From: Escherichia phage vB_Eco_ZCEC15 | Direction: 5' to 3' (one strand) | Sequence record: PQ871103.1 | DNA length: 64,000 bases | Shown: piece by piece, positions 30-25,909 of the stretch | Layout: every line of letters starts with the position of its first letter | Position numbering within the stretch: the first letter of the stretch is position 1 | Notes under the pieces: generated by a model | The model's database searches: none | The model's input: the letters and a program-made list of their open reading frames with translations, nothing else | What the model was told of the DNA's origin: nothing | Position numbers and translations under genes: made by a program

Positions 30-3000
30 ATGGCTACTTTAAAACAAATACAATTTAAAAGAAGCAAAACTGCAGGTCAACGTCCTGCTGCTTCAGTATT
101 AGCCGAAGGTGAATTGGCTATAAACTTAAAAGATAAAACAATTTTCACAAAAGATGACTCAGGTAGTGTTATAGAATTAGGTTTAAAATATGGAGGAACT
201 ATAAATGGGTCTTTAGAGGTTACAGAAAATATAACTGGAACTTTAATTGGAAATTCTAGCACAGCTACTAAATTGCAAACACCTAGGAAAATTAATGGTA
301 TATCTTTTGATGGGTCAAAGGACATTACCTTAACTCCATCTGACATAAATGTCAATAGCACAACATTTATAAAAAATAATGGCGAATTACCTACTGATGC
401 TAATTTAGATACGTATGGGCCCATTGAAGAATATCTTGGTGTTTGGTCGAAATCTACTTCAACAAATGCGCAACCAGCAAATAAATTCCCAGAAGAAAAT
501 GCCGTAGGTGTACTAGAAGTATTTGTGGCTGGTCAATTTGCTGGCACTCAGCGTTATACTGTTCGGTCTGGTAACGTTTATATTCGTTCCTTATCTGCTA
601 AATGGAATGGCGTAGATGGTCCGTGGGGTGTGTGGCGTAATGTTCAAGCGTCAACTCGTCCACTTTCACAAACGATTGACCTTGATAGCTTGGGAGAATT
701 AGAACATTGTGGCTTATGGCGAAACAGTTCAAGCGCAATCGCATCATTTGATCGCCATTATCCAGAAGAAGGAACAGCCGCACAAGGATTTTTAGAAATA
801 TTTGAAGGTGGTTTATACACGAGAACGCAGCGTTATACTACCCGCATGGGTATGGTTTATACTCGTTGTCTCGCTGCTGCATGGGATGCTAGTGCACCTA
901 AGTGGGAGGAATGGAAGCAGGTTGGTCATGGCACACCAGCGACTTTCTATGATGGAGATCTGAATGATTTTAAAACTCCCGGGTTATATAATATTTTAGG
1001 CACTGATGCCGTTATTAACTGTCCTACAGGTGAAGGTTTGCCGACTGTTATTGTTGGTTTGCTGGAAGTTAAACAGCGTGCTTCTGGCGGTGCTATTTTC
1101 CAACGTTTCACTACCGCAGGAACGGGTGCAACTACTCGCGATCGTATTTTTGAGCGTGCATATACTGGTGGTGCGTGGGGTGCATGGAACGAAGTATATA
1201 CATCTTATTCTCTGCCAATTACTTTGGGTATGGGTGGTATTAAAGCTCAATTAGCGGAGTTAGATTGGCAAACCTTTGATTTTGTCCCTGGTAGTATGTT
1301 TAGCGTTCCTTTGAATAAAATAAAGAACATGCCAGCAAATATGAATTGGGGGACGATTGATGGAAACCTGGTTATGTTTTCCGTTGGTCCTAGCGAACAC
1401 ACTAGCACAGGACGTACTGTTCAGGTTTGGCGTGGTACTGTATCCCAGACAAACTACCGTTATTTTGTCGTTCGTGTGTTCGGTAATTCTGGAAATAGAA
1501 CTTGCACAGTCCGCCGTGTTGTTCTTGAAGATGGTCGCCACACATGGACAGCTCAACAAGATTTTAGGGGCGCGGTTAATCTTTACGGTGCTACATATCT
1601 TCGTTCAAACAATAAATTGATATTAGATCCGGGTGCATATATTCAAGCCCCTGCTAGCGGTTCTGGTTCTAATACTTACGCAAATCAGAATACTACCATT
1701 GCGCCGTTATATCAGGCCATTGACGATTCAAATAAAAACCAGTTTGCGCCAATTGTTAAACAGAAAAACACTGTAACAAATATTACTATGGCTTCTGGTA
1801 TGGATATTGCTAGTTCAGAATATCGTATCGTTGCTCAGGGTGATTTATCCGCTACTGGAACTACAGCCACTGAATTAGCTACATGGCGTTTCTTGCCGTC
1901 TGGCCGATTCATGTCACAAAGCCGAGTTTACGCTGGAGCAGCATTCCTTAATACCGATGGTAATATTGCTGGTTCTATCTGGAAGAAATATAATAATGCA
2001 ACCAATTTAGACGCTGCTTTGAATACTCGCGTGGGTAAAGGCGGTGATATTATGACCGGACGCTTGACAATTCAAAGCCCAGGTGATTCTATTGTATTAT
2101 CAGCACCTGCTAGTAATTCTTTGCATATTCGTGGTGACGTAGACGGGACTGGTAACTGGTATATAGGCAAAGGCGGCGATAATGGTCTAGGTTTTTATAG
2201 TTACATTACACAAGGCGGTGTATACATAACAAATAACGGCGAAATATCGCTTTCTCCTCAAGGTCAAGGAACATTTAATTTTAATAGAGACCGCCTTCAT
2301 ATAAACGGTACACAATGGGTTGCGCATAAATCTGGCGCCTTTGGTGACCAATGGGGTTTAGAAGCTCCGATATTTGTAGATTTTGGATCCGTCAGCAATG
2401 ACTGCTATTATCCTATTATTAAAGGAAAATCTGGTATTACTAACGAAGGATATTTTTCCGGCGTAGATTTTGGTATGCGACGCACTACTAATAACTGGGC
2501 GCAAGGTATTATTCGTGTAGGTAACCAGGAAAATGGTTCTGACCCGCAAGCTGTATATGAATTCCACTATAATGGAACTCTGTTTGTTCCTAACATGGTT
2601 CAAACTGGAGCAAGATTATCAGCTGGCGGTGGTGACCCGGTGTGGACTGGGCCATGTCTTGTTATTGGTGATAATGATACTGGTTTAGTCCATGGCGGTG
2701 ATGGCCGAATCAATATGGTTGCCAATGGTGTTCATATTGCTTCATGGTCATCTGCTTCTCATCTCCATGAAGGTCTTTGGGATACTACTGGTGCTTTGTG
2801 GACTGAGCAAGGAAGAGCTATTATTTCTTTTGGTCATTTAATCCAACAGAGTGATGCATATTCAACGTTTGTCCGTGATGTTTATGTCCGTTCTGATATT
2901 CGCGTTAAAAAAGACCTCGTTAAATTTGAAAATGCTTCTCAGAAGCTTTCTAAAATTAACGGTTACACTTATATGCAGAAGCGAGGCCTGGATGAGGAAG

Positions 3001-3227
3001 GTAATCAGAAATGGGAACCTAACGCCGGTTTAATTGCTCAAGAAGTTCAAGCTATTTTACCAGAATTAGTTGAAGGTGACCCTGATGGTGAAGCTTTACT
3101 TCGTTTGAACTATAACGGTGTAATTGGTTTAAATACAGCTGCAATCAATGAGCATACCGCAGAAATTGCAGAACTTAAATCAGAAATCGAAGAACTTAAA
3201 GCATTAGTTAAATCATTGTTAAAATAA
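30..3227 (+). CDS. 37: long tail fiber distal subunit gp37 with C-terminal intramolecular-chaperone-like domain
   Basis: 1065-aa ORF, ATG at 30 after AAGAGGA; N-terminus [29 protein letters not shown] matches remembered T-even gp37; C-terminal [17 protein letters not shown] plus coiled coil resembles auto-cleaving tail-fiber chaperone modules. Confidence 0.9.
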
Positions 3228-3231
3228 TAAG

Positions 3232-3249
3232 AGGGGCTTCGGCCCCTTG
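3232..3249 (+). other. GC-rich UUCG-tetraloop RNA hairpin between genes 37 and 38
   Basis: GAGGGGC TTCG GCCCCTT directly after gp37 stop and before the gp38 SD; no U-run, so probably a stability or coupling element rather than a terminator. Confidence 0.4.
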
Positions 3250-3258
3250 GAGGTTTAT

Positions 3259-4035
3259 ATGGCAGTAACAGGACCGTGGGTAGGATCGTCTGCAGTAGTT
3301 AATACAGGACAAAATTGGATGGGTGGCGCGGCCCAACGATTAAGAATGGGTGCTCCATTTTGGATGAGTAATATGATAGGTCGATCTGTTGAAATAATTC
3401 ACACGCTTGGAGCAGACCATAACTTCAATGGTCAATGGTTCCGAGATAGATGTTTTGAGGCAGGTAGTGCACCTATAGTGTTTAATATCACTGGAGATTT
3501 AGTATCATATTCTAAAGATGTTCCTTTATTCTTCATGTACGGAGATACACCGAATGAATATGTTCAGTTGAACATACATGGTGTAACGATGTATGGCCGT
3601 GGCGGGAATGGCGGTAGCAATAGTCCTGGCTCAGCTGGGGGTCATTGTATTCAAAATGATATTGGTGGGAGACTAAGAATTAATAATGGCGGAGCTATTG
3701 CTGGCGGCGGCGGCGGTGGCGGCGGCGGGTATTATTCTCCTTTTTCACAAATGAGATTGACCTTTGGCGGTGGCGGCGGTCGTCCGTTTGGCGCACCGGG
3801 CGGATCTATTGATATGCAATCAGGAGCAACTGCTGGTACTATTTCTGCGCCAGGCGCAGGGTCTGTGAACGGTATCTACAACGGCGGGTCTGGTGGTGAA
3901 GTTGGCTCCGCAGGAGGTAGATGTAATATTCGTGGTCAAGGATATGAATACGATGGCGGAGCTGCTGGTTATGCCGTCATAGGGTCTACACCGACATGGC
4001 AAAACGTTGGAGCAATATATGGTCCAAGAGTATAA
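3259..4035 (+). CDS. 38: tail fiber adhesin gp38 (T2-type, glycine-rich motifs)
   Basis: ATG at 3259 with GGAGG 5 nt upstream (ORF-track start 3247 is TTG); N-terminal [13 protein letters not shown]; C-terminal poly-Gly blocks [11 protein letters not shown] and [14 protein letters not shown] separated by variable segments. Confidence 0.85.
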
Positions 4036-22206: not shown

Positions 22207-23526
22207 TCACACATAAAACACATCATAACGACCACGAGTAACACCAACATAAAGAAGCTGCTGAGCTAGTTCAGCGTCTGCATAATGAATACAAGGCGTA
22301 TAAATGAAAGCACGGTCTACAGACATGCCCTGAGCTTTATGGAATGTTGATGCAGGAAGTGCTTTCACTTTACTAAACTGTGATTTAGCATCCCAAAAAT
22401 CACTCCACGGAGCTTTTCCACCTTTATTCCAATTTTTATACGTTTCTGCCGTTTTACCTAAAAATAGGTTAAACTTATACAGCTCTTCATCAGATGAAAT
22501 TATTTTAATCTTTTCACGATAATATTCATCATCGCTGTAAGTTTCTACTGTTAAATCCCAATGACGAATTAGATATTCTCCAGAAACACCACGAGCTTTA
22601 ACAAATGTTGATGTATACTCTGCTTCTATAATACGAACTAATTGTCCGTTATTAAAAATAATTTCTGACACAGGCTTTCCATCAATTTTATATGTTTTAA
22701 TTAATGGTTCCTGCATTACAATAATTTCACCGACGATAAAATCTTTATCAGTTTCAAAAATCTTTTTGCGAATAATACTATTTAACTTGTCGACAGATTT
22801 ATTCGTAAATGCCATTACGCGATTTTCAAACAAATCATCTAGTGATTTTACGATTGAAAAATAATTTACCATAAAATCGCGTAAAGCGGTATCACCAGTA
22901 AATCCACGTACTCCATGGCCGTCAACAACTTTATCATAAATCCACTTACCGTTGCGAACATCAGTAGCTACATCAATAATAGGAGCATTACTGCGTTTAA
23001 CTTCAGTGAGTTCACACTGATAAAAATCTTTATGTGTAAAGAACGGACTGATATAAGCGGTGTTTTCTCCTGGGTCAACAGGTCTAATTTGCTTATTATC
23101 GCCTATTCCAATTATAGTACACCACGGCGGGATAGTTGAAAGCAAAATTTTAAATAACTTTCTATCATACATTGACACTTCGTCGCAGATTAATACTCTG
23201 CATTTAGCTAAATCCGGTACTTCTTTTTGTTCAAAAAGAACGTTTTCTTCATATGTTACCGGGTTGATTTTGAGAATACTGTGAATAGTACTCGCTTCTT
23301 TCCCTGACAGTTTTGAAAGAATCTTTTTAGCTGCATGAGTAGGAGCTGCTAAAATAATACCAGTTTCGCCTGTAGATATTAAGGCTTCAATGATGAACTT
23401 AGTAAGAGTAGTCTTACCAGTACCAGCAGGTCCATTAATAGTTACATGATGTTTCTTTTCTTTAATAGCCCTCATAACGATGTTAAAGGCATTTTTCTGG
23501 CCTTCTGTCAAATCATCAAATGTCAT
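22207..23526 (-). CDS. dda: DNA helicase Dda (SF1B)
   Basis: 439 aa with Walker A GPAGTGKTT; sequence matches remembered T4 Dda. Confidence 0.9.
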   Translation of the reverse strand: MTFDDLTEGQKNAFNIVMRAIKEKKHHVTINGPAGTGKTTLTKFIIEALISTGETGIILAAPTHAAKKILSKLSGKEASTIHSILKINPVTYEENVLFEQKEVPDLAKCRVLICDEVSMYDRKLFKILLSTIPPWCTIIGIGDNKQIRPVDPGENTAYISPFFTHKDFYQCELTEVKRSNAPIIDVATDVRNGKWIYDKVVDGHGVRGFTGDTALRDFMVNYFSIVKSLDDLFENRVMAFTNKSVDKLNSIIRKKIFETDKDFIVGEIIVMQEPLIKTYKIDGKPVSEIIFNNGQLVRIIEAEYTSTFVKARGVSGEYLIRHWDLTVETYSDDEYYREKIKIISSDEELYKFNLFLGKTAETYKNWNKGGKAPWSDFWDAKSQFSKVKALPASTFHKAQGMSVDRAFIYTPCIHYADAELAQQLLYVGVTRGRYDVFYV

Positions 23527-23834
23527 CGTAAATTCCCTGCAATTGGTATACTAACAATACGCCCAGTATCTAAAATTCGCCGATATAATCTTTGTGTGTC
23601 TACATCAGGCTTAACACGTTTAACTTCTATTTTATTAAACCAAAACTTACGTGGAGTCTCAACTAATCTCGGAATTCCCATACCTAAAGCTAGTCGATAC
23701 TGCTCTTTAAGAGTAGTAAATACTTTATCAGCAATCTCCCTTTCAAAAAATACAGCAGGGCGATGTTCATCAAGCGGAACTGGCGCCGTAAATCCATCTT
23801 TATCTCTATAAACTATCGCATATACATAAAACAT
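23523..23834 (-). CDS. hypothetical protein 103 aa (dda.1 position)
   Basis: ORF with ATGA overlap onto dda. Confidence 0.55.
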   Translation of the reverse strand: MFYVYAIVYRDKDGFTAPVPLDEHRPAVFFEREIADKVFTTLKEQYRLALGMGIPRLVETPRKFWFNKIEVKRVKPDVDTQRLYRRILDTGRIVSIPIAGNLR

Positions 23835-23835
23835 A

Positions 23836-24571
23836 TTATCCTCGGATAAGTTTAAAAATTGAACAATTTAGCGGGTATCCTCTTTTCAGTTTAAGTTTAT
23901 CAATAAAAGACAAATTTTGATACCGCTCTACACCTTGAATAATTTTATCACACATATCATATTGCATTTCTGCTTCTGACAACCTTTTCACAGTTTTCCA
24001 ATCCGAGCCTTTAAGAAGAACGTTCAATTTAACAACTTCAGCGCCTTCTGCTATACGAGAACCATCAATACGAGCTTTGAGTGCTACAATCGTTAGCTTA
24101 ATGTCTGAGGTTTGTTTTGATTTAGAAAGCTGAGAAATGTGTTCAATTCGGTTTTCACGTTTTTTCTGTATAGCTTTAATTTGATTATAAGTCTTTTTGA
24201 TTTTAGCCCATTTCTTTTCATCTAAATTTAGTTTATGAACTTTTTTCGCAGATGAACGACCAATTCGCAAAGCAAATAAATCACGCTTTTCAATCAACTC
24301 TTCTAAAGTATAATCAGAACGAAATGTATTGTACTTTTTCTTTACTGCAATAACATTCCCTTTAATGTATCCAACGTTATTATCAAAACGTTCTAATGAT
24401 AATTTCTCTCCTTCAATACGATTATCAAAAGTAAGCGCAAACTTTCTGATCTAAAATGTTCTTAATGTAATTGAAGTCTAAGTTAAAATCTTTAGAACGT
24501 CTTTTAGCAGATGCCTGAGTGTGCTCAAGACGACGTTTAATTTTACGAATTTGATTATTAGACAGTTTCAT
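23836..24571 (-). pseudogene. srd: srd-like gene interrupted by an apparent frameshift (sequencing error not excluded)
   Basis: ATG-initiated 48-codon fragment (24425-24571, MKLSNNQIRKIKRRLEH..) ends at TGA; downstream frame (23836-24450, 204 codons) has no ATG at its 5 prime end; frames differ by one nt near an A4 run at 24427-24430. Confidence 0.45.
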
Positions 24572-24600
24572 ATTTTTCTCACGGACGGTTAACTACTTAT

Positions 24601-24631
24601 ACTATAACATTTTTACTTCAGCTTGTAAACA
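24601..24631 (-). promoter_or_regulatory. early promoter upstream of srd
   Basis: minus strand GTTTAC, 18-19 bp, TATAGT; UP element AACTTTATGAAAAA. Confidence 0.5.
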
Positions 24632-24686
24632 ACTTTATGAAAAATGCTTTAAAACTTTCATGGTATAATGAATCTAAGTCCTTCCA

Positions 24687-25289
24687 TTATAGATTAAATC
24701 CTTCAAAATCAAGAGTATAGATAGTGTATGTTGAATACTTTTTATACTCGTATCTATCCGCAATTCTAAATACACTTCCAGCTGGTATCATTACTTCTTG
24801 TTCATCTGAAACTAATTCCATATTACGATAACGATGGCTATCCGGAAATTTAAAACTCGGGCTATATTCTTTACAACGTAAAGCTTTTATAGCATACTCC
24901 TGGAAATTAAACACCATAGGAGCTTTGAATTCAAAAATAACTTGTGTGTTGTATTCTAATCCAGAAGCAAAATGTAGAGCTATATTTTTATCATATGAAG
25001 CTGATACTACTTTATCAAATGTAATAATATCAATTCCTTGATTTAACACCTGCTTAGTCTCAACTGGAACACCTCTCCAAAGAGGTTTATCGTTTGGAAC
25101 CAAACGAGATTTGATTATTTCATTTAACCAAGAATGATCGTCTGGTTTATTAGTAATACAATGAATTAAAAGTTCAATTTCAGATAAATTAAATCCTTCG
25201 GAAAGTAATTCTTCACGAATAGAAGCACGCACGGATGCATCCATTGATTTGATTTTAAAATCTTTTAATTGCATTGCTGAATATTTCAT
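24687..25289 (-). CDS. modA: ADP-ribosyltransferase ModA
   Basis: 200 aa, size and position match T4 ModA; ATGA overlap with modB. Confidence 0.8.
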   Translation of the reverse strand: MKYSAMQLKDFKIKSMDASVRASIREELLSEGFNLSEIELLIHCITNKPDDHSWLNEIIKSRLVPNDKPLWRGVPVETKQVLNQGIDIITFDKVVSASYDKNIALHFASGLEYNTQVIFEFKAPMVFNFQEYAIKALRCKEYSPSFKFPDSHRYRNMELVSDEQEVMIPAGSVFRIADRYEYKKYSTYTIYTLDFEGFNL

Positions 25290-25909
25290 TCAACTACCTC
25301 AATATCATACACTTTAAATGTTCCAAATGAATCATGTAATTTTTCTTTTGAAATAGAAGTTATTTTATACTTTCCAATTGGAATCATCCATTCTTGTTCA
25401 CGCACAATCATCATTAAGTTATCAGTACGTTCTGAATCTAATCCATCAGTATCTTCATATGTATACTTAAACTCAGTATTAGGAGAAGAAAGTATAATAT
25501 CACTGATATGGTCAGAATAATTAAAAGCTTTATCAGTTTTTAAGCGAAATATTATTTCAGTGAAATACTCAACATAAGAAAAACCACATGCTGTGTGCAA
25601 ACTAGTAGTAAATGAATCTACTCTGTTCGTTGAAAACACTTCTCCGATTTGTAAATCTTTAATGAGTTCTTTTGTCGATTTTGATATACCACGATATAGC
25701 TGATAAGGCGATTTAGTTAAATGCTTTTTAACGATTTTATTCAACTGCTGATGAAGAGCTTCATTCTTTTTGGCTTCCATACATTGCCAAAGAATTGACT
25801 GTTCAAAGTCAGTAAATTTTTCACAGACCTTTTTATACATATCATATTGAAAATCGACACTTTCAGCTTTTATAGATAACTGTTCAACATCTGTGAGATT
25901 AATAATCAT
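25286..25909 (-). CDS. modB: ADP-ribosyltransferase ModB
   Basis: 207 aa from ATG at 25909 with GGAGG SD (ORF-track start 25921 lacks SD); paralogous to ModA. Confidence 0.75.
   Translation of the reverse strand: MIINLTDVEQLSIKAESVDFQYDMYKKVCEKFTDFEQSILWQCMEAKKNEALHQQLNKIVKKHLTKSPYQLYRGISKSTKELIKDLQIGEVFSTNRVDSFTTSLHTACGFSYVEYFTEIIFRLKTDKAFNYSDHISDIILSSPNTEFKYTYEDTDGLDSERTDNLMMIVREQEWMIPIGKYKITSISKEKLHDSFGTFKVYDIEVVE

Follow-up and report, generated by a model that had tools for sequence, protein, structure and literature searches.

An 11-nt deletion in the early gene srd of Escherichia phage vB_Eco_ZCEC15 that is probably a recent null allele

Two reading frames at the place of one gene

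The 64,000-nt stretch of DNA from Escherichia phage vB_Eco_ZCEC15 analyzed here (PQ871103.1; hereafter the window, its first letter being position 1) raises the question of how its phage reads the gene srd, since the place that srd occupies in T4 holds two overlapping reading frames that are offset from each other. The initial annotation attributed this to a one-nucleotide frameshift and named three readings: a true pseudogene, a programmed frameshift, or a homopolymer sequencing error at an A4 run. We find the first of these to be the best supported. The gene is an already known one, and its probable knockout would be an ordinary event that carries no recoding signal.

The features of the locus, in window positions, are as follows.

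24425-24571, minus strand: 5′ fragment of srd, ATG at 24571, 48 codons, TGA at 24427-24425; matches phrog_1400
23836-24424, minus strand: 3′ remainder of srd in the +1 frame, corresponding to Srd residues 52-248 plus stop
23836-24297, minus strand: longest startable ORF of the 3′ frame, TTG start, 153 aa
24429-24432, no strand assigned: deletion junction, where 11 nt (CTCRGGAGAAC) of relatives are missing
24425-24430, minus strand: UUU UGA, a potential "shifty stop" by sequence, with no stimulatory elements
24601-24629, minus strand: early-promoter-like site, hexamers TTTACA and TATAGT separated by 17 nt, the -10 hexamer preceded by TG
23523-23834, minus strand: dda.1, intact ORF downstream of srd, its ATG 1 nt past the srd stop
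24687-25289, minus strand: modA, intact ORF upstream of srd, named from the annotations of relatives
22207-23526, minus strand: dda, ORF

The coordinates and translations first given for the two frames are reproduced by our analysis. Translation from the ATG at 24571 (MKLSNNQ...KVCAYF, in full MKLSNNQIRKIKRRLEHTQASAKRRSKDFNLDFNYIKNILDQKVCAYF) yields Srd over codons 1-47, and codon 48 (Phe) and the stop belong to the shifted frame. Offset from it by one base, the second frame stays open between 24450 and the TAA at 23838-23836 (204 codons). It lacks an ATG at its 5′ end, as had been reported: the earliest ATG is Met 190 of the 204-codon translation, near the C terminus, and the first start of translation table 11 is the TTG at 24297. 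This TTG is directly abutted by a purine-rich stretch (agaagagTTG), with no spacing and no usable ribosome-binding site, and the 153-aa ORF that it opens is probably not expressed. Joined, the two frames give 244 aa, in line with the roughly 245 aa expected of a fusion; that figure had also been offered as the size of Srd, which is in fact 248 aa in T4 and relatives.

Both frames match the same protein family, phrog_1400 ("Srd anti-sigma factor"), the 5′ frame at profile positions 2-45 (E 7e-20) and the 3′ frame at positions 49-249 of 251 (E 8e-79), so that the pair of ORFs is not due to chance. The first 47 codons encode residues that are all identical (47 of 47, tblastn) to those of Srd of phage CHD16UKE1, and the second frame shares 193 of 198 residues (97%) with T4 Srd 51-248. 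Judged by these matches, the two frames are pieces of one Srd gene and the initial identification of the locus as srd is upheld. Together they match phrog_1400 over its whole length, as members of the Srd family do. Two further properties of the family are absent here: a single uninterrupted ORF of about 236-252 aa, which the stop after 48 codons precludes, and the invariant motif Q-x-x-C-A-Y-S-G-E-x-F, from which codons are deleted.

The position of the locus agrees with this identity and with the placement between dda.1 and modA first proposed from T4, as a comparison of the window ORFs with the T4 annotation shows. On the minus strand, the early-gene strand, the order is modB, modA, the srd locus, dda.1, and dda, as in T4 (modB-modA-srd-dda.1-dda), and the location of srd between modA and dda.1/dda was compared with the annotated T4, ime09, YUEEL01, and UGKSEcP2. 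The early-promoter-like site upstream of srd scores 10 of 12 matches and its sequence is unchanged in the aligned relatives. ORFs on the plus strand of the region are short and antisense to conserved genes, and an Rfam search of 23000-25500 on both strands gave no match near threshold.

Annotation of this gene is inconsistent across relatives, in which it appears as "Srd anti-sigma factor," "anti-termination," "general stress protein," "HNH endonuclease," or "hypothetical protein." Many genes neighboring srd in MZ234030 are clearly misnamed ("molybdenum ABC transporter" for small early ORFs, for example), and in the same record "thioredoxin" is given to a run of ten genes.

The lesion and its distribution among relatives

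Alignment of the locus to relatives, including the T4 srd comparison that had been recommended as a check, reveals an 11-nt gap where a one-nucleotide frameshift had been proposed. The counterpart in relatives of a 1051-nt query that covers the locus is 1062-1063 nt long, and the gap is seen against LF73P3, UGKSEcP2, YUEEL01, ime09, T4, and CHD16UKE1. Relatives read GCGCTTA[CTCAGGAGAAC]CTTTTGAT at the junction, the bracketed block being absent here; T4 and LF73P3 have the variant CTCGGGAGAAC, and the window reads GCGCTTACTTTTGAT, that is, GCGCTTA joined to CTTTTGAT. The missing block, CTCRGGAGAAC, is mixed sequence flanked by a 2-nt CT repeat (microhomology), and the breakpoint is ambiguous over this repeat and may lie anywhere within 24429-24432. 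The codons lost are S48-G49-E50-P51. Since a loss of 11 nt produces the same net frame change as a shift of one base, the two frames look "offset by one." The frame break itself thus stands, with its stop after 48 codons and its offset second frame, and the one-nucleotide cause assigned to it does not.

A homopolymer-length sequencing error was rejected on the same alignment: relatives have a TTTT run (plus-strand A4, 24427-24430) of equal length, and what is missing is a mixed block of 11 nt. A net +1 frame break beside a short T run can therefore stem from a longer deletion, and homopolymer error should not be assumed for such breaks without an alignment.

We found the 11 nt in every relative in which the junction could be compared. 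A 70-nt junction probe matched 490 records of the phage collection, 441 of which align end to end; all 441 of these alignments span 81 nt at 86.4% identity, which means that all 441 records carry the 11 nt, and the deletion junction of the window appears in none of the approximately 490 phage records that have this stretch. The exact 28-mer of the junction is absent from IMG/VR, JGI metagenome contigs, and GTDB genome contigs, while the wild-type junction, searched as a control, is present in five IMG/VR contigs. Complete E. coli genomes yielded no similar sequence by megablast. A total of 21 loci were checked for the deletion. Thirteen were compared base by base, and all 13 have a 747-nt srd that includes the 11 nt; ten of them were chosen because their contigs encode an identical Dda.1 (10 of the 24 listed), and all ten have a 248-aa srd upstream. 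The eight further loci, T4 included, have an intact 248-aa Srd with CAYSGEPF.

The single-ORF architecture extends well beyond close relatives. Among the 27 clusters of the Srd family in a large protein collection, 25 have a length of 236-252 aa, and the two exceptions are a fragment cut by a contig end and a divergent 195-aa protein. Relatives down to 31% identity have a single srd ORF of 236-252 aa, so homologous phages do not carry two separate genes at the srd site; two separate conserved genes there had been named as the finding that would overturn the idea of a split srd.

Interrupted srd genes do occur elsewhere. Among 1180 phage records that encode an Srd relative, we sampled 60 at even spacing, and in one of the 60, Mosigvirus AV115 (OR352945.1), srd falls into two tblastn pieces. 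Its srd is annotated as two CDS, at 398-667 and 838-1143 of the locus ("putative anti-sigma factor" and "anti-termination"), and the length of the locus, 740 nt compared with 741 nt in close relatives, suggests a 1-nt indel. The split in AV115 indicates that viable or deposited phages with a broken srd exist. Broken srd alleles are thus occasional in deposited genomes, as expected of an accessory gene.

A probable null allele and its rivals

We consider it probable that vB_Eco_ZCEC15 carries a null allele of the Tequatrovirus early gene srd, made by a very recent 11-bp deletion. Loss of the 11 nt shifts the frame so that translation from the normal ATG ends at the UGA after 48 codons, and the other 197 codons of Srd lie beyond it in the +1 frame, untranslated. 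The deletion would have arisen by replication slippage or short-homology end joining in the immediate lineage of the isolate. We see replication slippage or alternative end joining, on the one hand, and the minihomology joining known from T4, on the other, as equally possible origins.

What the truncation removes includes part of the most conserved motif of the protein. The residues Q42-x-x-C45-A46-Y47-S48-G49-E50-x-F52 are invariant in an alignment of 17 Srd homologs that reaches down to 31% identity, and the deleted S48, G49, and E50 are invariant in all 17. AlphaFold2 modeling of an Srd with 98% identity (mean pLDDT, 88.7) placed a short beta hairpin and a helix in an N-terminal domain of about 110 residues, which long helices follow, and the deleted residues sit in a confidently modeled region. 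PHROG profiles of HNH endonuclease, endonuclease VII, and related endonuclease families match residues ~10-98 (E 1e-18 to 9e-8). A Foldseek search of the model gave nothing significant; its sole fold-like match in the PDB is the HNH enzyme PacI (probability 0.99, target-normalized TM-score 0.50, E 0.29). Pfam has no family above threshold for Srd, and a search of the PDB by sequence returned no match for it. The profile matches and the model suggest that a degenerate HNH-like domain may underlie Srd, something that the label "anti-sigma factor" does not convey. With the premature stop, everything past residue 47 is lost, this domain core and the long helices included. Lacking both the whole of the small, conserved beta-beta-alpha (HNH-like) core and the helices of the C-terminal half, the basic 48-residue N-terminal peptide is predicted to be inactive as Srd.

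The main rival to a null allele is an assembly or sequencing artifact: srd would be intact in the phage itself, encoding 248 aa, and assembly, consensus polishing, or a low-coverage spot would have cost the sequence its 11 nt. We regard this as unlikely, though it is the strongest of the alternatives. The deletion is known from a single assembly, we found no independent assembly of the genome, and the allele is unique among the ~490 records and the three contig collections. Apart from the gap, the srd of the window has no private substitution: the 140 nt upstream of the junction are identical to UGKSEcP2, and the 596 nt downstream show zero differences from LF73P3. A frame long untranslated would gather changes, and since none are seen the deletion should be either very recent or absent from the phage; the full downstream identity to a relative is equally expected from an artifact. 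The 2-nt microhomology also counts against a real deletion, being shorter than the minihomology range of T4.

Against an artifact, the missing bases are mixed rather than homopolymeric, and the T4 run beside them has not changed. Consensus sequences from short reads and long reads alike do not commonly lose a clean block of 11 nt. We also called ORFs in 75 kb of MZ234030, the closest annotated relative (~96% identical), and compared them with the window by tblastn. Of the 160 reference ORFs that have a match in the 64-kb window, 147 are full-length in one frame, and srd is the only one split between two frames; the other ORFs flagged are antisense ORFs or have divergent termini or start-codon differences. 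With srd as the sole split gene among ~160, the consensus does not appear to be frameshift-ridden, or the assembly error-prone, in general.

Several further observations concern the relationship of the window to other phages. Over 20 kb, the best matches in the phage collection are vB_EcoM-CHD16UKE1 and relatives, at ~96% identity. The srd of the window looks mosaic, in that the 140 nt before the junction differ from LF73P3 at three sites and the 596 nt after it differ from UGKSEcP2 at six. Divergence within the window seems to be greatest in the receptor-binding module: gp37, the distal subunit of the long tail fiber (30-3227, plus strand, 1065 aa), is ~70% identical over 871 residues to that of the closest annotated relative and has no exact match on record, and a gp38-like ORF with glycine-rich runs follows it (3247-4035, plus strand).

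A compensatory +1 frameshift (a "savior indel") would leave the phage with some Srd. With the UGA still awaiting RF2, peptidyl-tRNA-Phe would slip from its UUU onto the one that overlaps it, and a low level of a 244-aa Srd that lacks S48-P51 and keeps partial function would result. The junction reads UAC UUU UGA U (24433-24425 plus the U), so that the P-site codon can re-pair perfectly in +1 within the T4 run while a stop occupies the A site. This is a shifty-stop arrangement, a UUU_U site is used at prfB in a minority of species (PMC5009743), and the downstream frame is open for 197 Srd codons (reading D-N-R-I-E...). The stimulatory elements, however, are missing. No SD-like match of at least 4 nt to AGGAGG lies within 25 nt upstream, and the UGA is followed by U instead of the conserved C. 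At prfB, CUU_U is by far the better site and UUU_U much weaker, the C after UGA is important, and high-level shifting needs the upstream SD (PMC5009743).

Comparison with homologous genes also argues against frameshifting. The configuration is found in none of the relatives (441 junction matches among the ~490 records, and 21 loci), all of which have a continuous ORF, which makes it a by-product of the deletion instead of a signal shaped by evolution. The shifted product would in addition lack the three invariant residues of CAYSGE, the most conserved motif (block pLDDT, 94). A trace of slippage at the junction is conceivable, but functional recoding there is unlikely, the programmed frameshift of the initial annotation finds no backing in conservation, signal, or product, and we hold the compensatory version to be highly improbable. 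Equally far-fetched is a more elaborate scenario in which loss of srd is advantageous on the isolation host (for example, where a host system senses Srd or a hyperactive RNase E) and the shifty stop supplies a trace of the 244-aa Srd.

That the locus works as a split gene, its 48-aa peptide and a re-initiated C-terminal protein (TTG 24297, 153 aa) both being made and keeping activity together or separately, is very improbable as well: both frames are intact and AV115 is annotated with two srd-derived CDS, but no ATG or GTG start precedes the TTG at 24297, that TTG lacks a spaced SD, no relative is split here, and the break of AV115 lies elsewhere. Re-initiation behind the strong AAGGAG at ~24407-24412 was considered and rejected, as no in-frame ATG, GTG, TTG, or ATT stands at usable spacing. 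The protein collection contains neither the exact 48-aa product nor the 153-aa TTG ORF.

Consequences and comparison with known systems

If the deletion is real, the isolate is a natural srd-null Tequatrovirus. T4 Srd is described as binding the catalytic N-terminal half of RNase E and as stimulating host mRNA degradation (Qi et al. 2015, as cited in PMC13232886 and PMC4980113). For a null allele we would accordingly expect RNase E-dependent decay of host mRNA to be slower early in infection. The ~590 nt of untranslated mRNA may also lower the expression of dda.1 and dda through polarity. The phage would be expected to survive the loss, because srd is reportedly an accessory (dispensable) gene. 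The literature that we searched contains no mention of srd escape mutants or of links between srd and a defense system.

The allele matters little beyond annotation. The locus should be labeled a disrupted srd (pseudogene, 11-bp deletion); labels such as two hypothetical proteins or a recoding site would be wrong. Were the deletion real, comparison of the isolate with the srd-positive LF73P3 or UGKSEcP2 could test, in a phage other than T4, what Srd contributes to the decay of host mRNA driven by RNase E.

Small deletions of a similar kind are known in T4, in which UvsX-dependent "minihomology" joining makes deletions between very short repeats of 3-13 nt, from 17 bp upwards (Wu et al. 2021, PMC8262927). 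The srd deletion resembles these in being small, in affecting a dispensable early gene, and in lying at a short direct repeat that survives as a single copy. It differs in its repeat (2 nt compared with 3-13 nt) and in its size (11 bp compared with a minimum of 17 bp), and there is no sign here of a double-strand break or of CRISPR pressure. We gave no weight to the possibility of a Cas9 escape deletion. In its leftmost placement the deletion begins exactly 3 nt upstream of an RGG in relatives, as it would in an escape mutant, but a coincidence of this kind is expected in about a third of cases (a rough hand estimate, with three equivalent breakpoints at each end and two strands).

The junction can likewise be set beside the CUU_UGA_C site of prfB (RF2), with which it shares a slippery codon, a UGA that directly follows, and the rest of the protein in the +1 frame. 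The differences are UUU in place of CUU, U and not C after the stop, and the lack of an SD three bases upstream. In addition, the srd site is unconserved and was made by a deletion that also removes conserved codons.

Another parallel is the srd of Mosigvirus AV115, a second public T4-like genome in which the gene is interrupted. It belongs to another genus, its Srd has ~68% protein identity, and its break lies at a different place in the gene.

The gene can also be compared with srd of T4 itself (T4p019, NP_049634; "Srd anti-sigma factor"), whose product has been postulated to be an RpoD/RpoS decoy. The window gene shares with it the position in the order modB-modA-srd-dda.1-dda, the phrog_1400 matches in both of its parts, and the early-promoter-like site upstream. 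T4 and all relatives examined at the srd site have one 248-aa ORF; in the window, by contrast, 11 nt are missing, the ORF ends at codon 48, and S48-G49-E50 are gone.
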